From sequence record PQ631072.1: 64,000 bases of DNA, one strand, 5' to 3'. Below are positions 38,800 to 47,551 of the stretch, piece after piece (positions within the stretch are counted from its first letter, which is position 1; the number at the start of each line of letters is the position of its first letter). The notes below the pieces were generated by a model that was not told the DNA's origin, made no database searches, and saw only the letters and a list, made by a program, of their open reading frames with translations. This DNA is from Escherichia phage EC.P2. The translations under genes were made by a program, and so were the position numbers.

Positions 38800-41619
38800 A
38801 TGTATCCTATTCCTTTATTTATGTCAACAACATCAGCTTCAGTAGTAACAGCTACATCTATAACCACTTCCTCTATTGGTATTGCAATAGTTGGTAGTAA
38901 AAAGCAACTGACATACACAGTTTCACCGGAAGATGGTGCGTTATTTGATATAGCTTTTTCATCTTCAGATAATACCAAAATGGTTATAGATAATAACGGT
39001 ATGATGGAGTTTGTTGCTGAAGGCGGTTTTGATGCAATAATGACAGCTAAAAATAATTTAGGTGCTGTCTTAACTGATCAATCTGGTGGCTATGCTTCAG
39101 AATTAAGTGTGTACACTGAAAGTCTGTCTGCTATGGATGCAGGAACTACTCAACAATTGGTTGCTACAATCAGTCCAGAAGGTGCTAAAGACCTTCCAGA
39201 CATGGTAATTACGTACACCACAACAGATCCAGAAGTAGCTACTGTAAGCCCTACAGGATTAATAACTGCTCTTAAAGATGGCAGTTGCCGTATAGGTTGT
39301 ACTGCAACTTATCAAGGAACAGTGGTGGCCTCTGATAGTTCTTATTTAGGTGTTAATGCTATTCCTGTTATTTCTAATGTAACAGCCGTGGCAAACAGCT
39401 ATGGAGACATTCGTGTTGCTTGGGATGTAGCTGATCCGCTAGATGGTGATACTTATACTGTAGAAGTATTAGATTTAAGTAATAACAGTGTCCAGTGGAC
39501 TACAACAACCACGAATACTTACGCCTACTTTGATATCTCTGACTCTATTCCTCTTTATGGGTTTGCTCCAACATACCTTAAAATTAGCGTTAAGAGCACC
39601 AAAGCAGCAGCCGTTATCTTTAATAACTCAATAGCTACAGATGATTCATTCATTAAAGAAGTTATTGTCTTTGCTGGACAAGATAACGTAAATGCACACT
39701 TTACAGAACTATCTGGTGCAAATAAAGCAGCAATGAGTAGCACAACAACCCGTAACGCATATGCTACGCAACGTGGTTTAGCAAATGCTGAAGTTCTTCC
39801 GTTAAATACAGCTTCTGGATCATCAGCAGCAGATAAATATGCTGACGATAAAGCTGGAACAGGTACACCAGACAACTACTGGTATGATCTGGATAACACA
39901 GCAGATGGGCCATGCTTAACTAATTTTATCACTAAAGTCACACCTTATGCAAGTAAGGTTAAAGCAATTATTTGGGGACAAGGTGAAAATGATGCTGTAT
40001 CAGCATCTTCAACTGTTGCAGGTAGGTACAGTAACACTACACGTTACCATGATGCTACGATAGCCATCTTTGATAAGATGCGTACAATAGTTCCTGCTTC
40101 TCAAGCAAAAATTGTTTGGCAGATCCTAGGACGTTCTTATCTATATGGTGTAGAAGTTAATGGTGTAGATTGGCAGAAATACAGAAATGTACAAAGAACC
40201 ATCTCTACAGCACGTGACGATGTTATCATTGGTTCTTGGGTAGATGGTGCTGAACGTTACAGTGGCTATGCTTATGAAGAAGGTATTGATGGTCGTATCC
40301 ATTATATTTCTTCTGTATACCAGACAGCAGCTACAAAACTTGCTAAATCAGCAGCAGACGGTACAGACCTAACATCAACGTCACCTGTTTGGGTTGATAT
40401 GGCTGTTCCAACTGGAGCAACAGCTACTTCCCAGTCTAATCAAGATACAATTTTAGCATGGGATGCTCAAGGTTATAGTAAACACTACTTCCGTAATATT
40501 AACGTCTTAACAGCATCTGTATTAACTGAACAAACGCTTAATACGAACAGTTATACGTTTACCTATGCAGATCAAGTAGAACAATATGGTTTTGCAGCAG
40601 GTACTACGATATTTGATGTTGCATATTATGACGAAGCAAATGATGTGTTATCTCCTTTAGTACGTTTTAATGTTAGCGTTACAGCAGGAAAAGTAGAAGA
40701 TAAACCTGTCGTGATGGACTATGATTTGACACAAGAAACTCTTCCATCAGATGTTAAGGTTAATGGTGGGAACTCTTTTGCTCGTGCTTCTGGAGATACA
40801 CTTGTAGCCACTAACACCTTGGTTGCTCCGTTGGAGTATGTTGGCACTACCCCTGTAGGTAGACGTGTAACAGCTAACACAGCTACACAAATTTTTGTCA
40901 ACAACGCCTTAACAAGCGCAAGCCCGTGGGTAAAGACCAACTTAACTGTTGCATCTTCATCTGATAAATCTCCGGCTGGAACTACTGCTAATGTATTCAA
41001 ATTAACTCCGACTACAACTTCTGGTAGTCATATCTTAACTGCAACATATACTAACGCGTACAACATATCTGCCGGACGTAACTGGTCTGCCTCTGTTTTC
41101 TTGAAAGCGAACGGGATTACTAAGGCCAAACTAAGATTAAAAGCAGGGACTGAAGTTAATGAAGGTACTTTTGATTTAGCAGCAGGTACATTCACAGGAA
41201 GTGAAGCTAATATTATATCTATGGGCAACGGTTGGTATCGTGCTATTCTGCATAAAACAGGAATAGCCAAACAGTCCTCCATAAGTTTTGAAATAATTGC
41301 CTTGGATGCAACTGGTGCGGAGATTTTCGCTGGAGATGGTACTAGTAACCTTGCAGTTTGGTTGCCACAGCTTGAAGGTGCTTCTACAGGAGAAACATCA
41401 AAAGCTGGATCGCCTTATGTCTGCACATATCCTGGAAATTTAGGAGGAGTATCCTTCACTATACCAAGGAACGGACATACTGGTGTGGATGTTTACTATT
41501 CCAACGGAGACGTTGTTCGTGACGTATTCTCTGGTACGGCATCTACTTGGACAATAAACTACTCCAGCTTGTACGATTGGGGATCAGTCTTTATTACAGG
41601 TTTGAAATATTACGACTAA
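38800..41619 (+). CDS. tail fibre protein with Ig-like domains and SGNH/sialate-O-acetylesterase-like domain
   Basis: N-terminal Big_2-like repeats; FAGQDNVN and IWGQGENDA motifs about 110 aa apart resemble the GQSN / W-QGE-D esterase signature. Confidence 0.5.
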   Translation: MYPIPLFMSTTSASVVTATSITTSSIGIAIVGSKKQLTYTVSPEDGALFDIAFSSSDNTKMVIDNNGMMEFVAEGGFDAIMTAKNNLGAVLTDQSGGYASELSVYTESLSAMDAGTTQQLVATISPEGAKDLPDMVITYTTTDPEVATVSPTGLITALKDGSCRIGCTATYQGTVVASDSSYLGVNAIPVISNVTAVANSYGDIRVAWDVADPLDGDTYTVEVLDLSNNSVQWTTTTTNTYAYFDISDSIPLYGFAPTYLKISVKSTKAAAVIFNNSIATDDSFIKEVIVFAGQDNVNAHFTELSGANKAAMSSTTTRNAYATQRGLANAEVLPLNTASGSSAADKYADDKAGTGTPDNYWYDLDNTADGPCLTNFITKVTPYASKVKAIIWGQGENDAVSASSTVAGRYSNTTRYHDATIAIFDKMRTIVPASQAKIVWQILGRSYLYGVEVNGVDWQKYRNVQRTISTARDDVIIGSWVDGAERYSGYAYEEGIDGRIHYISSVYQTAATKLAKSAADGTDLTSTSPVWVDMAVPTGATATSQSNQDTILAWDAQGYSKHYFRNINVLTASVLTEQTLNTNSYTFTYADQVEQYGFAAGTTIFDVAYYDEANDVLSPLVRFNVSVTAGKVEDKPVVMDYDLTQETLPSDVKVNGGNSFARASGDTLVATNTLVAPLEYVGTTPVGRRVTANTATQIFVNNALTSASPWVKTNLTVASSSDKSPAGTTANVFKLTPTTTSGSHILTATYTNAYNISAGRNWSASVFLKANGITKAKLRLKAGTEVNEGTFDLAAGTFTGSEANIISMGNGWYRAILHKTGIAKQSSISFEIIALDATGAEIFAGDGTSNLAVWLPQLEGASTGETSKAGSPYVCTYPGNLGGVSFTIPRNGHTGVDVYYSNGDVVRDVFSGTASTWTINYSSLYDWGSVFITGLKYYD

Positions 41620-41623
41620 TAAA

Positions 41624-41652
41624 AAAGGAGCCATTAGGCTCCTTTTCTTTTA
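41624..41652. terminator. bidirectional rho-independent terminator at convergence of plus and minus transcription
   Basis: 9-bp hairpin AAAGGAGCC-ATTA-GGCTCCTTT flanked by A-run upstream and T-run downstream. Confidence 0.7.
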
Positions 41653-41654
41653 TC

Positions 41655-42086
41655 TTAATCAGTGAAAATTACGCTTACATCTTCTTTAGAAAAGAGTTTA
41701 TGATTTTCACCTTTTGTCTCAAGAGTTTCATACAGGTTAAGAAGTTCTGAAACATCTTTCTCTACTAGTTTCTTCAATGTTGCAATTTTCTGTTTGCGAT
41801 TCTTAATACGTTCAGCTACAACCTTACGTTGGTATCCGGCAGTACGATAACCTGAGAAAGTTACACCAGTGAGACTTGCAGTTACAGGATCGTAGTGACG
41901 TTCAATCTGAAATTTATTAAAAGGTACAGCGTCATCACGAATAATCTTACCGCCATTACTTACTTGACGAAGACCAGTAACTTGTTCCAGTCGTGCCATA
42001 GAAATCTTTGGAGACAGACCAGAGTCCAGGTTCATACCGTTGTTAATCAGTGCTTTCAGGGTGATTTTGCTGTTCAGTGTACTCAT
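41655..42086 (-). CDS. hypothetical protein (143 aa)
   Basis: Start at 42086 has GGAGGA RBS; overlaps 3' end of methyltransferase gene by 44 nt. Confidence 0.45.
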   Translation of the reverse strand: MSTLNSKITLKALINNGMNLDSGLSPKISMARLEQVTGLRQVSNGGKIIRDDAVPFNKFQIERHYDPVTASLTGVTFSGYRTAGYQRKVVAERIKNRKQKIATLKKLVEKDVSELLNLYETLETKGENHKLFSKEDVSVIFTD

Positions 42087-42774
42087 TTAGTCGTTCCTCC
42101 GCTTGTTTAAAAATATTTACATCGGCTTCACAGCCTAAGTATTCTCTACCTGTTAAAAGTGCCGCAACTTGTGTTGTTGCACTTCCAGAGAAGAAGTCTA
42201 AGACTACATCTTCTTCGTTGGTATGTATATTAATAAGGTCACAAAACAAAGTCAAGTGTTTTTGTGTTGGATGAAAACGATCTGCTCCTTGATAGATAGG
42301 ATACTCAAACACACCCTTATGATAGGAAGCATTGAAGGTTGGCTTCGAACCTTTAACACAGACAATAGCCATCTCTTTAGCGTTACTAAGGTAGTTAACA
42401 CCACTGTTGATGGGTACAGGGTTTGTTTTAATCCATTCAATAGTACGGAACATACGAAAACCAAGCGGTTCAAGGATTTCACGTAGCTCCTGGATCTTCC
42501 AGATATCATACCAAACTATGCAAGTACCACCTTTTCTAAGCACCCTATAGGCTTCTTTGAATACTTCTTTAAAGTAAGGAATATCTACAACATCCCAGTC
42601 ACCAAAGTTGTAAGATACACGGAATCTATCTGTATCTTTTCCAGTAGGCTCTCCAGATTGAAAATTTGTGTCACGAGAAATAGCATAGGGTGGGTCAGTA
42701 AGAATCAAATCTACACTATTGCTTTCGAGGGTTTGCAGGTAGTTTAATGCGGTGTTGTTTACAAATTCGCTCAT
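42043..42774 (-). CDS. DNA methyltransferase, beta-class (N6-adenine or N4-cytosine)
   Basis: Motif IV DPPY near N-terminus (LILTDPPYA) followed by motif I FFSGSATT near C-terminus; AAGGAG RBS. Confidence 0.85.
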   Translation of the reverse strand: MSEFVNNTALNYLQTLESNSVDLILTDPPYAISRDTNFQSGEPTGKDTDRFRVSYNFGDWDVVDIPYFKEVFKEAYRVLRKGGTCIVWYDIWKIQELREILEPLGFRMFRTIEWIKTNPVPINSGVNYLSNAKEMAIVCVKGSKPTFNASYHKGVFEYPIYQGADRFHPTQKHLTLFCDLINIHTNEEDVVLDFFSGSATTQVAALLTGREYLGCEADVNIFKQAEERLNEYTEQQNHPESTD

Positions 42775-42791
42775 TATATCTCCTTCAAAGA

Positions 42792-42811
42792 AAAGGAGCC
42801 GTTAGGCTCCT
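42792..42811 (-). terminator. hairpin terminator; near-copy of the 41624 hairpin
   Basis: AAGGAGCC-GTTA-GGCTCCTT; in minus sense followed by TTCTTTG. Confidence 0.5.
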
Positions 42812-42834
42812 TATATTCACACAATATTTAATTA

Positions 42835-43782
42835 TTAGAAACAGTGCAGGAAGTTTCGACCATATTGCAAACCAATAGGCGCAAATGGGATATCATCATC
42901 GAAATCTTGAACAACAGGTTCTGGTTCTTTCGGTGCTGGCTCTTTCTTCTCTACTTTTTTAGTTTCTTTCTTAACTTCTTGTACTGGAGTAGACATTCCA
43001 CGGATAGCAGCAGCTACTTTATCAGACAAAGCAAGAACTTCACGAGCAGCTTCAATAATCTCTTCTGCCGTTACAGTTTTACCTGTATGATCACGACAAG
43101 CGTTAAGAATTGCGTGTCCAACTGAAGCACCAAGATCATAATCAGTCACATCAACGCCACGATCTTTAGCAATTTCAGCTTTCAGAGTAACAGTTGCAGA
43201 TTGTACCACACCAGCCAAGTCGAAAGCATCACCTTTCACACCAGCACGTAGAAGCTCCAGAGCGCCGTTTACAGCGTGTCCTGTTTCAATCCCTACGGTA
43301 TCACGTTTTTTGTAGTTAGGCTTGCTACCGTCATTATTAGAGGGCTTATTTCCACCTTTTGAAGAGGATTGTGCTTGCTGAACACCTTCTGTTGAAAGAA
43401 TAGTGATTTTACCTTTAGAGGAGTTGTAGTATGTTTTGCCATTCCATTCAGAAGGTTTAACATCCATAGTTAGTTCTACACCTTTTTCGATAGTAACCCA
43501 CTTATCACCATCTTTAACTTGCAGGTTTTCATGTTCTGGGTGCAGTTTAACTTCACCTAGGCTAACCCAAACACCTTTATCATCAGCACCAGCACCTTTC
43601 TCTTTAATAAGCAGAGATGCTTTGTGAGTTGATTCAATTTTCTTATCTGGCTGACCTGCAACCTTAATATAAGAGACTTTCATTTCATCAAACTTATCTA
43701 GTTTGACATATTCGACAATACCTTCAGCCCAGAATGCTTCTTTTTTAGTACGACGGTCGATTTCAGAATTAATTACTGGCAT
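42835..43782 (-). CDS. DNA-binding protein with SSB-type acidic motif (DFDDDIPF) near C-terminus
   Basis: Motif VQDFDDDIPF matches the canonical SSB tail tip but is followed by 15 more residues; Gly/Asn/Ser-rich linker upstream. Confidence 0.45.
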   Translation of the reverse strand: MPVINSEIDRRTKKEAFWAEGIVEYVKLDKFDEMKVSYIKVAGQPDKKIESTHKASLLIKEKGAGADDKGVWVSLGEVKLHPEHENLQVKDGDKWVTIEKGVELTMDVKPSEWNGKTYYNSSKGKITILSTEGVQQAQSSSKGGNKPSNNDGSKPNYKKRDTVGIETGHAVNGALELLRAGVKGDAFDLAGVVQSATVTLKAEIAKDRGVDVTDYDLGASVGHAILNACRDHTGKTVTAEEIIEAAREVLALSDKVAAAIRGMSTPVQEVKKETKKVEKKEPAPKEPEPVVQDFDDDIPFAPIGLQYGRNFLHCF

Positions 43783-43798
43783 AAATTCTCCTCTATAA

Positions 43799-44197
43799 TT
43801 ACATTACTTTAACACAAAACTCTCGTAAAAGAGTAGCGTCAGTTTCTTCCAACAGGTATTTACCAAGACCAATACCAAATCCTATTTCACCACTTTCAAA
43901 ATGGAGAATTTGTATCTTTTCTCCACCAAGATTAATTACTTTTGCTTTTCCAGGATTATCCAAAACATCTCGTATTGTGTCCTGTAGTAGCATTAGTTCA
44001 CGTTTTGTGATAGTGGTTTCAGATATCTCTTTGTCTTCTACCCGCACTGTTAAACGGTTGTATCCACCAAAGAGACATAGTATTTGAATAAAAAAGGTAT
44101 TATCTTGAGGTTCAACATCTTTTTTAGTTAGTTCAAGACGATTAGTTTCTCTACTATAGAACGTCTCGACTAAGATTTTAGAACGATTGTCTATCAT
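43799..44197 (-). CDS. hypothetical protein (132 aa)
   Basis: ATG with GAGGA RBS. Confidence 0.45.
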   Translation of the reverse strand: MIDNRSKILVETFYSRETNRLELTKKDVEPQDNTFFIQILCLFGGYNRLTVRVEDKEISETTITKRELMLLQDTIRDVLDNPGKAKVINLGGEKIQILHFESGEIGFGIGLGKYLLEETDATLLREFCVKVM

Positions 44198-44240: not shown

Positions 44241-44834
44241 TTAAATCTTAAATTCTTCGTTGTTAAATGAATCCAGTGTACGTACTTCTGGTTCTTTGGG
44301 AATGAAAACGTCTTTTACAAAGCGGAACATAGGGAAACGTTCTGCCATTTTACGGACGTGTGCTTCTTTACCTGTGTATCGGTGATTAATAGTGCAAATA
44401 TTAGTTTTCAATGCAAATTCAAAATCTGGATGATATACATAATTTTGACCATCCCAGTAACACAGGCAAATAGCTACGTCAAAGTTCCATACGATTTCAC
44501 TGCGTACACCTTCTTCCATGATCATAAAGTTAAACTTAAGGTCTTTATAGTATGCTTCAAATACCCATTTCAAATGTGGTAGTTCGGCATAAGTGTGTTC
44601 TGTTTGCTTAGTAAGTTGTTTAACATTACGTGCACCAACACCCAACATCAAAAACTTCTCTACTAGCACGAGTGTATTGTGGTTAGGCATACGCAAGTAA
44701 ATGTCAATATCTTGTGCAGGTTTCTCTAATCGCCAATCACGTACAGCGCCGCCAGCTACAATTGCAAACGGATCTACCAGTTGGCACATACGTAATACTT
44801 CTAAAGCGCGTACTTTTTGATCTTCAATATTCAT
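44241..44834 (-). CDS. nucleotidyltransferase (Pol-beta superfamily; CCA-adding/poly(A) polymerase head-domain-like)
   Basis: N-terminal motif VAGGAVRD....DIDIYL matches the GGxVRD...DxD signature of tRNA nucleotidyltransferase heads. Confidence 0.5.
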   Translation of the reverse strand: MNIEDQKVRALEVLRMCQLVDPFAIVAGGAVRDWRLEKPAQDIDIYLRMPNHNTLVLVEKFLMLGVGARNVKQLTKQTEHTYAELPHLKWVFEAYYKDLKFNFMIMEEGVRSEIVWNFDVAICLCYWDGQNYVYHPDFEFALKTNICTINHRYTGKEAHVRKMAERFPMFRFVKDVFIPKEPEVRTLDSFNNEEFKI

Positions 44835-44971: not shown

Positions 44972-47551
44972 TCAGTGACAAGACGCCCATGAGTTACCAA
45001 CATCGTAACCAGCAGTGAGAGGTACATTAAGATTGTAATACTCACCAGCTTTATTAACAGCGATAGATGCTAATTCTCCAGCACGACTGTAGGCTGTAAA
45101 CCAACCACCTTTCGGAGATTCATGTACGTTAGCCCAAATCTTGCCAGTACGTTTCTCTTCCTCTTCTTTCCAGGCGTTAACTTTATCCAAACATTCTTTA
45201 TCAATTTTCTTTTGTTCTTCTGGATCATCAACTTGAGTCCAACCTAAAGATTCTTTAGAGAACCATTTAAAATGCACGAGATCACGAGTTACTTCAAGCT
45301 GTGCTTCATCGTGATATGCAATCATTTGTTGAACGAATGACTTATTTTTCCAGTCATCAACAAAAAAGTCAACAGCTAATCCTTCTTCTTCGATAAGATC
45401 ATCGTAGATAACCATTGCTCTTTTTGCACAAATAACACCACCACTCTGGAACAGAGAGTTAAGTATTGCGTGTGCAGATCGTGTAGGTACTTTCCTTCCA
45501 TCAATACCAAGAATGTATTTCTTACCTGTTTTAACCCAAAAGTCATGCAGACGTTCTTTAAGAAGCGCAAGAGGTTTTGCAGCTTCCCAGAAAGCATCGT
45601 ATACAAGCTGTCCTGTATACATATCACTACCAATAGTTTTTGCTACTTTTGCAGCTTGAGCACCATAAGTAATACCATACTTAACAGATTTAGCAGGGCT
45701 TCGTTCAAACTTACGACCAATAGTGTCAGAAATACGTCGAGCCATCATTGTATGAACATCATTAGGTTTTTCCAACAATAGAGCATTACAATATTCGTGT
45801 GGTTCCTGCTCGTACCGCCAACAGTAGTGTGATTCTATTTTTGCCTCAAGAGAATCAAAGTCATAACCAATTTGGAAGTATTTTGGAACTTCTACACCAA
45901 ATAAGTTACGCATTTCATATCCGTACAGAGATGTTACACGTGGGATATTTGCTACTAACCTATGTTTCATACGAGACGTAGCTGCATCACACGTTGCAGC
46001 AGGAGTTGGTATACGACCATCAGCCCTTACTGCCGCCAGATAACCTTTATCGTAATCCTCTTCATCTTCTTCCCAATCAGCGCCACCCCCTAGAATAGAG
46101 TTTCTACGATGTTTATACGTAAGATACTGCACAATCTGCGTAGCATAAGGAAACTTTTCACCTAGTGCTTCCAAGTTAGGACAAATATCCTTCTCTTGCC
46201 CTTTTGTAAAGGAAGGGTTAGTAAGCACTTTAACACCACGACCTTTAGCTTTAGCAATACGATCTCTTAGTTTCCATTCCAAAGTTTCTGGTGTGCACTC
46301 CAGATGATCACATCTGTCCTGGCAGAAGTTAGATGCTAATGTTTGATCAACATAGTCACGAATAGCTTTCTCCATTTGTGCTTCATCTTTCTTAATCTTA
46401 GTGCCAGATTTAAGAGTGATATCTTTATCTTTATATTCAGATGGACTCCAACCTAAACCAACTAACCAATTTTTAATATGTGTAGTGTCGTCTAAAGTAG
46501 CAGGTACTGTAGGATCACAAATAGGTTCTTCTGCTGGAATAGGTAGTTTAAACTCTTTACCTAATGCAAATAACCACCAACCATCTTCTTTTTGTACAAG
46601 TTCACCAGAATGTTTCTCTGCAAACTTTATCATGTTACTTGAAGGTTCACCATTCTTTTTAAACTGTAGTTTAGGTGGAATGAATGATTTCAAATAACCT
46701 TTAGTAGCAGGTTTAGGAGGTAGTACAGGTTCTGCCTCTAAACGACATGCTTCCATTCGAGCATCCAGATCACGAATATTATCTTCTGCTTGTTTCATAT
46801 TGAAAGCAAAGCCACGGTGCTCTTGACGTGTAATAATATCAGCTACACGTTGTTCTAAGTTAAATGGTTCAGACCACTTATTATAATCACCCCACTCTTC
46901 CATCAAATAACGGAACACTGCGGTGTTAGCTTTGTTATCGTAAATACAGTAATACAGCATATCTGCTGCAAATGTTCTAAATCTTTCAGTTTCAGGAATG
47001 TTTTTTCTAAAATCAATTTTAACATCCCCTCCAGCTTTCTTAGATAACTCTGCCAGACTATGACCACCGAAGCGATCAGGGTTTAGTGTCTTACTTAAGA
47101 TCATAGTATCACAAATTTCAATGTTACTATTACCCCAAGTATTGTACTTAATACTGTAGTTGAGTTTAAAAAATAATTTAATTGCCAGTAAGTCGAAGTT
47201 AATGATGTTGTGTCCAACTACTTTGGTAATTTTATAGTTTGAATTACCTTTAAATTTACCTGTTCCATTTACAAAATCAGGAAAATCTTTAAGAGGGAAA
47301 TGGGTATATTCTAAATGCTCATATTCCTCCAGTCGGTATTCATACTTTCCGTCAGTCTCAATATACGGACGACCATCGAAAAGATATTTATCACCATCAT
47401 GGAAAGCAATAATCTCTCCAGTATCATGACTTTCACACACAATACAGTGCATTGCAAAACTATCTTTTAAACGATATGGACTTGCCAAGTAATCTACACT
47501 TTCGTCATTAAGCAAGTTGTTACTTTCAATGTCGAAAGTAAAAGCTCCCAT
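44972..47551 (-). CDS. DNA polymerase, family A, with 3'-5' exonuclease domain
   Basis: Exo I motif FDIESNNL at N-terminus; motif B-like K..YGITYG; motif C-like YHDEAQ; AGGAGG RBS. Confidence 0.85.
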   Translation of the reverse strand: MGAFTFDIESNNLLNDESVDYLASPYRLKDSFAMHCIVCESHDTGEIIAFHDGDKYLFDGRPYIETDGKYEYRLEEYEHLEYTHFPLKDFPDFVNGTGKFKGNSNYKITKVVGHNIINFDLLAIKLFFKLNYSIKYNTWGNSNIEICDTMILSKTLNPDRFGGHSLAELSKKAGGDVKIDFRKNIPETERFRTFAADMLYYCIYDNKANTAVFRYLMEEWGDYNKWSEPFNLEQRVADIITRQEHRGFAFNMKQAEDNIRDLDARMEACRLEAEPVLPPKPATKGYLKSFIPPKLQFKKNGEPSSNMIKFAEKHSGELVQKEDGWWLFALGKEFKLPIPAEEPICDPTVPATLDDTTHIKNWLVGLGWSPSEYKDKDITLKSGTKIKKDEAQMEKAIRDYVDQTLASNFCQDRCDHLECTPETLEWKLRDRIAKAKGRGVKVLTNPSFTKGQEKDICPNLEALGEKFPYATQIVQYLTYKHRRNSILGGGADWEEDEEDYDKGYLAAVRADGRIPTPAATCDAATSRMKHRLVANIPRVTSLYGYEMRNLFGVEVPKYFQIGYDFDSLEAKIESHYCWRYEQEPHEYCNALLLEKPNDVHTMMARRISDTIGRKFERSPAKSVKYGITYGAQAAKVAKTIGSDMYTGQLVYDAFWEAAKPLALLKERLHDFWVKTGKKYILGIDGRKVPTRSAHAILNSLFQSGGVICAKRAMVIYDDLIEEEGLAVDFFVDDWKNKSFVQQMIAYHDEAQLEVTRDLVHFKWFSKESLGWTQVDDPEEQKKIDKECLDKVNAWKEEEEKRTGKIWANVHESPKGGWFTAYSRAGELASIAVNKAGEYYNLNVPLTAGYDVGNSWASCH

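Follow-up and report, generated by a model that had tools for sequence, protein, structure and literature searches.

A conserved and laterally mobile peptide behind the SSB-type acidic tip of a phi92-like phage protein

The free C-terminal Phe in the acidic tip of SSB (single-stranded DNA-binding protein) is regarded as a universal handle that recruits replication, repair and recombination enzymes to single-stranded DNA (ssDNA). Here we deal with a stretch of 64,000 nucleotides from Escherichia phage EC.P2 (PQ631072.1), called the window throughout, in which the gene for an SSB-like protein encodes the canonical tip DFDDDIPF and then runs on for 15 further residues, which we call the extension. 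An earlier note, made from the letters of this DNA alone, had described just that, and both the list of open reading frames (ORFs) and the sequence bear it out to the exact coordinate. In the canonical tip, Pro and Phe dominate binding and the carboxyl end is anchored by an arginine in RecO (PMC3152348). The window protein resembles E. coli SSB in carrying the identical DFDDDIPF after a long disordered linker behind an OB-fold domain; it differs in that its Phe is internal (residue 300 of 315) and its body, which is not that of a PF00436 SSB, has an extra helical domain. What is known, then, is the SSB acidic tip, and what is new is a conserved and mobile post-tip peptide. This module is apparently undescribed: its motif strings were not found in any paper of the literature searched, where subscription journals are largely absent, and papers on SSB tips, phage SSBs and tail-guided recombineering make no mention of residues beyond the tip.

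A described member of the same protein family is Bas52_0087 of the rV5-like phage RudolfGeigy, an SSB-like trigger of the DRT10/UG17 defence with a predicted SSB-like architecture and an FDDDIPF "C-tip" linked to host exonuclease I; oligomerisation of Bas52_0087 is proposed only (bioRxiv 10.64898/2026.04.29.721553). The same preprint treats the family motif as a C-terminal tip and reports that DRT10 protects against Stephanstirmvirinae, a subfamily to which phi92-like phages belong. Bas52_0087 and the window protein are homologues (BLASTP E 2e-15 and 3e-14, two segments); the former is likewise encoded downstream of a DNA polymerase and shares the FDDDIPF tail; unlike the window protein, it has 408 residues with an extra inserted domain and ends at the tip without any extension (locus L138, 5982-7208). 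Its relative rV5 gp209 has both the extension and an endonuclease gene behind it. An endonuclease gene is also present in EmilHeitz (Bas50), as in the extended rV5, and the BASEL phages provide natural pairs that differ in whether they have the module. In RudolfGeigy the DNA polymerase gene (L138, 1-2803) is annotated as a join of two pieces, which suggests an intervening element in rV5-like polymerase genes.

Two more systems provide points of comparison. The tail NDYPPF of HK620 SSB couples to Sak4 and phage annealing proteins need the final residues of the SSB tail that is cognate to them (PMC5928155), while Red-beta is coupled to the SSB tip (PMC6393309). This is a precedent for the last tail residues deciding which recombination protein is recruited, although those tails end at an aromatic residue and no annealing protein was identified beside the window gene. 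Free-standing HNH homing endonuclease genes (such as I-KsaII of Staphylococcus phage K) are the other: in relatives of the window phage they are co-inserted with the extension at precise boundaries and are patchy among near-identical genomes, as would be expected for homing with co-conversion of flanks. The window itself, in contrast, has no endonuclease gene and neither have most extended SSB genes elsewhere. Our explanation as a whole sees a genuine SSB-like gene that has a mobile, selected post-tip module which re-specifies partner binding, and we rate it as slightly better than an even chance.

The SSB-like gene and its stop codon

By nucleotide identity the window is that of a phi92-like myovirus, since 1.2 kb around the gene are 95-99.4% identical to 55 phage genomes (phi92-like myoviruses, Justusliebigvirus, ~146-150 kb). 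A single minus-strand ORF with an ATG start (43782..42835, 315 residues) is seen in the ORF list and in the sequence of the window. Its product ends ...EPVVQDFDDDIPFAPIGLQYGRNFLHCF (a longer stretch of the same end being ...VVQDFDDDIPFAPIGLQYGRNFLHCF) and, read as one peptide, tip and extension are DFDDDIPFAPIGLQYGRNFLHCF-COOH as opposed to the DFDDDIPF-COOH of the free-tip form. All eight residues of the tip are those of E. coli SSB, which is far above chance expectation for 64 kb, and six-frame translation of the window identifies this as the sole D[DE][ILV]PF or G[LI][QMP]Y site of the tip or extension kind. GCG (Ala) directly follows TTT with no in-frame stop nearby, and the tip Phe lies 15 codons before the stop, so that as encoded it is neither the last residue nor the bearer of a free alpha-carboxylate.

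Is the stop codon wrong, through a sequencing error or a frameshift, and does the true protein end at DDDIPF, as the earlier note had proposed among its options? Exactly there most homologues do finish, the closest non-phi92 relatives (74-80% identity) among them; nonetheless the odds of an error are vanishingly small, because the whole product is encoded at 95-100% identity in 54 records and at 90-95% in one more (tblastn), the extension peptide is identical across these 55 independently deposited genomes with the phi92 type genome included, and the independently sequenced phi92 gp156 differs here by two synonymous base changes (GCG/GCT, CAA/CAG) without amino acid change or indel. Outside the extension, phi92 gp156 and the window protein differ at 10 residues, small numbers in either case. 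Moreover, over 70 distinct peptides, always placed behind the tip, make up the conserved family to which the extension belongs (see below). Another suggestion of the earlier note, that homologues might reveal the motif as part of a longer conserved domain, held up by half: extended homologues share a tip-plus-extension module, whereas most close homologues stop at DDDIPF.

As for the protein body, no Pfam or NCBIfam model (E up to 1 and 0.01, respectively), including PF00436 and TIGR00621, matches the 315-residue protein, and a search of PDB sequences with its profile returned only tail matches to the C-terminus of E. coli SSB (1eqq, 7f2n). PHROG 4477, of unknown function, does match, and similarity to this family (SSB-like proteins of phi92, rV5 and phAPEC8) extends over the full length with G168, G218 and G222 invariant; a homologue is labelled SSB in several database records. 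An AlphaFold2 model (80-sequence alignment, mean predicted local distance difference test score (pLDDT) 84.5) has a beta-rich domain in residues 1-130, predicted to be an OB fold of the ssDNA-binding type, and, after a disordered linker, a four-helix domain (163-260), which is the best-conserved part of the family and holds the motifs GxETGHAxNGA and DYDLGASVGHAxLNAC. The second linker (261-292) differs in length and sequence among homologues, and the entire tail (261-315), extension included, is modelled as disordered (pLDDT ~52-61), its Asp-rich stretch ending in Ile-Pro-Phe after a disordered linker as in an SSB C-terminus. Docking of the tail within its own protein was considered and rejected on the same grounds, the model leaving the tail disordered. 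Upstream of the SSB-like gene lie genes for a family-A DNA polymerase (44972-47551) and a nucleotidyltransferase-like protein as well as a conserved 132-residue ORF, an order that relatives keep. What the ORF encodes is a real SSB-like phage protein, predicted to combine an OB fold with a helical domain and a tail that is acidic and disordered. The 132-residue ORF (Phi92_gp157, 43799-44197) always precedes the SSB-like gene; relatives of the 197-residue nucleotidyltransferase-like ORF (gp158, 44241-44834) match Pfam PF26128 (Gad2), mostly weakly or faintly.

The post-tip module and selection on its peptide

Three features go beyond the earlier account, namely that the module is widespread, laterally mobile and tied to homing endonuclease genes. 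That it is real, conserved and laterally mobile we hold with near certainty. Among 100 homologues of the window protein, most end at D-[DE]-[IV]-P-F and about 20 run on for 14-17 residues with a conserved peptide (for example, APIGLQYGRNFLHCF, APIGLQYGMNLLHAMP, APVGLQYARHAISALYA, SPLGLQYPNHSMYALYA and APVGLQYGKSRIHAL). Compared to overall identity its distribution is patchy: relatives at 74-80% identity mostly lack it, whereas P0032 of the phAPEC8-like phage Mt1B1_P17, a protein of just 63% identity, has exactly the extension peptide of the window. In the rV5/phAPEC8/phi92 group of myoviruses, the free tip is the majority allele.

The consensus, directly after the Pro-Phe of the tip, is A-P-[IV]-G-L-[QP]-[YF]-x(3-5)-[IL]-[HYN]-[ACV]-[ILMV]-COOH. 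With a degenerate DNA pattern for P-F-A-P-x-G-L-Q-Y, 53 stretches came up in IMG/VR viral contigs as opposed to ~10 expected by chance (our own estimate from the degeneracy of the pattern), and each of the 53 has an acidic tip immediately before it and a stop 14-17 codons further on. The same pattern had 58 matches in 596 Gb of bacterial genomes (185,579 species genomes), about the chance number; some 10 of them are genuine, all from Gammaproteobacteria except for one Parasphingorhabdus metagenome-assembled genome, and the remaining ~50 lack the tip context. A recurrent match, apparently unrelated to SSB tails, is to Acidobacteria proteins of ~290-310 residues ending ...GLPDLR-PFAP[LQR]GLQYSIC[IV]EGIFPS... 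(L089, L098, L118, L120, L123). Among 71 distinct peptides altogether, two main classes stand out, 14-mers (A-P-I-G-L-Q-Y-[PR]-x-[LI]-L-[NL]-[CA]-[MI]) and 15-mers (A-P-[IV]-G-L-[QP]-[YF]-[PGA]-[RK]-x-x-I-[HY]-[AVC]-[IL], 33 distinct). The window extension opens with APIGLQY (301-307), as 15-mers do after Pro-Phe, and its end L-H-C-F fits the length and pattern of that class, albeit with minority states: terminal Phe occurs in 1/33 and Leu at position 12 in 3/33.

Carriers include canonical PF00436 SSBs, at least four small proteins without Pfam match and one 691-residue DnaB_C primase-helicase. Judging from this range of carriers, the module is a conserved short linear motif on many unrelated replication or recombination proteins of phages and prophages, not specific to the window gene. 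The primase-helicase, a non-SSB replication protein, is that of GAP31-like contigs of ~146 kb (L033, L054, L077) and ends ...LGPDDDTPFAPIGLQYAKHAIYVI; in Cronobacter phage GAP31 an endonuclease homologue adjoins the helicase/primase gene. In bacteria, an allele ending DFDDDIPFAPVTLPFPRHAIHAI and annotated ssb has a full-length match in 280 of 5426 complete E. coli genomes. Such prophage alleles of lambdoid or P22-like recombination modules (WP_032266179.1, E. coli SBF22) are like the window gene in having a tip and 15-mer (DFDDDIPF-APVTLPFPRHAIHAI) of the same motif family; they are unlike it in having a PF00436/PRK09010 body, in lying between genes for a Rad52/Rad22-family annealing protein and a phage anti-RecBCD protein (as at L457 in the SBF22 chromosome) and in having no endonuclease gene. 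When the E. coli prophage allele is compared with the NCBIfam SSB model PRK09010, the alignment reaches as far as the tip, and the last 15 residues of the protein lie outside.

How common are extended tips? Two earlier scans for extended and for free tips had at least 120 matches each, and we take no ratio from these. A pattern for DFDDDIPF alone gives an unbiased sample, whose best usable set consists of 80 contigs listed: 61 sites continue with a stop and 19 with an extension, which amounts to ~20% of these viral DFDDDIPF-coding sites or, after removal of duplicates, to 16 of 74 unique tails and 12 of 68 clusters. The first two extension residues in this listed sample are Ala (18/19) and Pro (16/19). 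A pattern for DDDIPF-A-P matched at least 120 times and brought up further variants including APVTLPFPRHAIHAI, APIGLPFPSHSIYAL, a 9-mer class (APLHHLAGA-like) and short forms. The latter, in viral contigs L141-L257, read APEWR(G), APAWLI or APCM after DDDIPF; the 9-mers (APLHHLAGA and variants) comprise 37 non-redundant loci with a median contig guanine-plus-cytosine (GC) content of 60% and have Pseudomonas and Ralstonia phages as their nearest isolates. Sequence classes differ between low-GC (median 46%) and high-GC (median 60%) contigs, and post-tip extensions thus seem to come in versions that vary with contig GC, a proxy for host clade.

Among 47 unique extension DNAs, synonymous sites are saturated (proportion of synonymous differences, pS, ~0.8). 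From codon 8 to the end, the part outside the search pattern, the ratio of non-synonymous to synonymous proportions (pN/pS) is 0.48-0.57 in the SSB frame, ~0.97 in the +1 (endonuclease) frame and 1.38-1.8 in the +2 frame; for codons 1-7 it is 0.04-0.09, most of these sequences having been chosen by the pattern. The extensions of the window and Mt1B1_P17 differ at 5 of 48 nt; in the SSB frame none of the five alters a residue, in the +1 frame three do. Retention of the peptide despite saturation at synonymous sites means that it is the peptide on which selection acts: this selection is purifying across the family, and within the phi92-likes we find synonymous changes only, in small numbers. Constraint at the DNA or RNA level (a ribosome-binding site, an endonuclease target or a junction linker) was rejected as the cause of conservation, the SSB frame alone being constrained and its synonymous sites saturated.

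Endonuclease genes and the 3' junction

Comparisons between close relatives place the boundary of the module. The free-tip phage phAPEC8_ev052 and the extended Mt1B1_P17 share 98.3% identity as far as the last Phe codon; beyond it, where Mt1B1_P17 has the extension and an HNH gene, they are unrelated; rV5 and Bas52 are 96% identical up to the Phe codon, after which a 654-nt insertion comprises extension and endonuclease gene, with homology back 14 nt after the Bas52 stop. The HNH ORF of Mt1B1_P17 (164 residues, MVETSCIASKVCFKCG...) opens at the ATG inside caaTATGGt, which encodes Q-Y-G of the extension; its annotated version, gp117, starts 29 codons too short. rV5 gp208 (MAKVESTHCKRCIKCG...) resembles the start of this endonuclease and overlaps the end of the rV5 SSB-like gene. 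Endonuclease ORFs start inside the extension at L002, L003, L017/18, L022, L024 and L026, and at the last four, all extended, they overlap its last codons; in the rV5-like contig L019 a variant endonuclease follows a free tip. Relatives of this endonuclease family, I-KsaII among them, occur in 566 phage records. Two endonuclease bodies, HNH and the rV5 gp208 type (annotated endonuclease VII-like), have in common a Cys-rich N-terminal module of 44 residues, CxxCGxxKxLxEFYKHxxMxDGHxNKCKxC (L003 3405-3899, L002 3600-4223, L022, L024, L026), which may be their DNA-targeting part.

Among non-redundant loci, an endonuclease gene lies just downstream of 12 of the 107 alleles in the 14-17-mer class as against 2 of 206 free-tip and 0 of 37 9-mer alleles (Fisher p 8e-5 for extended versus free-tip). 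It is therefore enriched behind the module, while most extended genes do without. As judged from these loci, the module is older and independent, with the site behind it settled by the endonuclease family, which also appears to carry the module into genes that otherwise have free tips.

At the window locus, tblastn with both endonuclease types found no such gene. Tip, extension and stop are nevertheless 90% identical (65/72 nt) between the window and Mt1B1_P17 as opposed to 68% for the gene body (binomial p 7e-6), which argues for a recent common origin of the two 3' ends and suggests that the tip-plus-extension block was laterally acquired. The phi92 lineage may have gained the block together with an endonuclease gene that was later lost or, alternatively, may be an empty extended allele; SalP219-like phages (L030) have the same arrangement as the window, an extension ORF and then a terminator. 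A simple leftover of a deleted endonuclease gene was considered and rejected, no homology having been found beyond the stop in the window. The 11-codon ORF that opens inside the extension of the window (Table 1) is forced by the conserved peptide and is thus no independent sign of a remnant.

Taken further, these junctions raise the possibility that the extension has no function in this phage and is a passenger, left behind as an endonuclease cassette, with the tip-coding DNA as its homology arm, brought about conversion of the gene's 3' end. It would be tolerated and hard to lose because Ala (GCN) needs more than one step to become a stop and partial truncation leaves an odd tail. Extension and endonuclease gene being one indel in both pairs, the 90% identical block on a 68% identical body, the viability of both forms in near-isogenic phages and an endonuclease start codon within the extension, so that expression of the cassette itself depends on this reading frame, would all fit. 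Against it, ~89% of the non-redundant extended alleles have no endonuclease gene nearby, yet keep the peptide with synonymous sites saturated and the endonuclease frame unconstrained; SalP219-like phages keep exactly the extension ORF followed by the terminator; and between the window and phi92 no residue has changed in the extension as opposed to the 10 elsewhere, small as these numbers are. To our minds a passenger is improbable, though it is the alternative we take most seriously.

Beyond the stop, the window has a hairpin, a methyltransferase gene, a 143-residue ORF and a second copy of the hairpin (Table 1), so that the two genes lie between two hairpin copies, AAGGAGCC-N4-GGCTCCTTTT (41623-42812). 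In relatives there is just one hairpin, immediately behind the SSB-like or the endonuclease gene, which argues that the methylase module is a separate insertion at the same hot spot; sequence after the second copy matches that after the single terminator of phAPEC8_ev052. The methyltransferase is not found in the closest free-tip relatives (L139, L140) and occupies the site where relatives hold an endonuclease gene or nothing. What relatives have at this hot spot, the junction between the SSB-like and tail-fibre genes, is an endonuclease gene, an HNH gene on the opposite strand (L140) or nothing.

Table 1. Features of the SSB-like gene and of its downstream junction, in coordinates of the window
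Feature	Coordinates	Strand	Basis
SSB-like gene (Phi92_gp156 homologue), 315 residues plus stop	42835..43782	-	ORF; PHROG 4477, E 2.6e-101; 100 homologues
N-terminal beta-rich domain, predicted OB fold, residues 1-130	43393..43782	-	AlphaFold2
Four-helix domain, residues 163-260	43003..43296	-	AlphaFold2 helices 163-179, 186-208, 215-230 and 239-260, pLDDT >90; alignments
Disordered Lys/Glu/Pro-rich linker, residues 261-292	42907..43002	-	AlphaFold2 pLDDT 52-61, no secondary structure
SSB-type acidic tip DFDDDIPF, D293-F300	42906..42883	-	Sequence; P299 and F300 invariant in family
Post-tip extension APIGLQYGRNFLHCF, A301-F315, 15-mer class	42882..42838	-	Sequence; family consensus; purifying selection in SSB frame
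Stop codon of SSB-like gene	42837..42835	-	Second in-frame TAA directly after
11-codon +1-frame ORF (MVETSCTVSNN, stop) from ATG inside caaTATGGt (Q-Y-G)	42828..42863	-	Sequence; no endonuclease body after it
Terminator-like hairpin T1, AAGGAGCC-TAAC-GGCTCCTT plus T run	42793..42812	-	22 nt after stop; homologous hairpins in relatives
N6/N4 DNA methyltransferase, 243 residues	42043..42774	-	PF01555, E 6.7e-30
143-residue ORF (Phi92_gp154), function unknown, second gene of inserted module	41655..42086	-	No Pfam or NCBIfam match
Second copy of hairpin, T2	41623..41646	.	Convergent junction with tail-fibre-like gene 38800-41619

Possible roles of the extension

Of the masked or regulated tip that the earlier note had put forward, only the premise stands, namely that the tip is internal as encoded and that the extra peptide is under purifying selection. 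How might such a tail work? With the tip Phe no longer at the C-terminus, its alpha-carboxylate would be unavailable to the pockets of host SSB-interacting proteins. At the same time, the module would add a second Ile-Pro-Phe-like unit (Leu-Gln-Tyr or Leu-Pro-Phe) four residues later as well as a new hydrophobic C-terminus, and might in this way re-specify the partner of the tail rather than simply inactivate it. In relatives the insertion has its left junction exactly at the last Phe codon, the tip-coding DNA being the stretch that otherwise divergent genes share. As a specific mechanism, partner re-specification is put forward tentatively and we would sooner wager against it than for it. Clustering of the ORFs within ~4 kb of 323 loci gave no phage gene that co-occurs with the module across lineages; enriched neighbours (Abc2-like anti-RecBCD, DnaQ-like exonuclease, ead/Ea22-like, RdgC-like, methylases) follow single lineages, not the module. 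Since, in addition, sequence classes track contig GC, a host protein is more likely to be the partner than a phage protein.

Several points weigh against partner re-specification by a selected module. The first seven codons of most sampled extensions are fixed by the search pattern, so that the unbiased selection signal comes from codon 8 onwards; the effect on partner binding is deduced from sequence comparison; and the model leaves the whole tail, extension included, disordered (pLDDT ~52). Near-isogenic pairs with and without the module exist (phAPEC8_ev052/Mt1B1_P17 and Bas52/rV5), and the module is therefore dispensable in these myoviruses and could be merely tolerated. With no neighbour gene co-occurring across lineages, a phage-encoded partner is not indicated, and with no endonuclease remnant beyond the SSB stop of the window, any past endonuclease gene in the phi92 lineage is without trace. 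Finally, an acidic tip that is kept in extended proteins fits a bipartite motif and a tip exposed by cleavage equally well.

A more specific version of partner re-specification may be envisaged, in which Ile-Pro-Phe, Leu-Gln-Tyr (or Leu-Pro-Phe) and the hydrophobic C-terminus make up a bipartite ligand that captures or inhibits a host enzyme such as exonuclease I or hides the tip from DRT10-like defences. It would be spread by homing endonucleases as useful cargo and exist in host-clade versions, 14-15-mers in enteric and vibrio phages and APLHHLAGA 9-mers in high-GC hosts. We consider it unlikely in this detail.

Less likely again is a removable cap, or pro-tip, from which a host or phage protease would cut between Phe300 and Ala301 to expose DDDIPF-COOH, possibly in a timed manner. 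The near-constant Phe-Ala-Pro junction across classes in the listed unbiased sample, the retention of the acidic tip in extended proteins, the transfer of the module between unrelated carriers and classes that differ between low-GC and high-GC contigs, as expected of recognition by a host factor, are all compatible with it. Against it, no protease with Phe-Ala-Pro specificity is known to us, a cap would require an extra assumption, and mere removal gives no obvious benefit that would explain the long-term upkeep of the peptide. Removal by wholesale degradation or remodelling, with the extension as a C-terminal tag for ClpX, for example, that limits protein level or lifetime, is very unlikely. 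Hydrophobic ends with a small residue at -2 ([HY]-A-[ILV], N-C-M) loosely resemble the C-termini of the ssrA tag (YALAA) and MuA (KKAI), but such a tag leaves the conserved N-terminal half (APIGLQY) and the strict post-tip position unexplained, and the LHCF end of the window protein is atypical. A motif for binding the sliding clamp (beta) of the QL[SD]LF or QLxLxL type has hardly anything to recommend it: the extension does have Gln followed by hydrophobics (LQYPALL, LQYGRNFL) near the C-terminus, a frequent place of such motifs, yet among 33 distinct 15-mers Gln (17) is swapped for Pro (12) or Met (4) in 16, and spacing to the hydrophobics differs between classes when compared by eye with the published consensus.

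Partner re-specification, even if tentative, has implications beyond this phage. Among the 80 contigs listed, about one fifth of phage DFDDDIPF tails have a conserved cap, of which one allele occurs in 5% of complete E. coli genomes, and a large class of phage SSBs may thus follow a different interaction logic. Because near-isogenic pairs exist (rV5/Bas52 and Mt1B1_P17/phAPEC8), the question is directly testable. It bears on recombineering, where SSB-tail compatibility limits portability, on how homing endonucleases reshape the ends of essential genes, and on phage takeover of host ssDNA metabolism and the defences that phage SSB-like proteins trigger.

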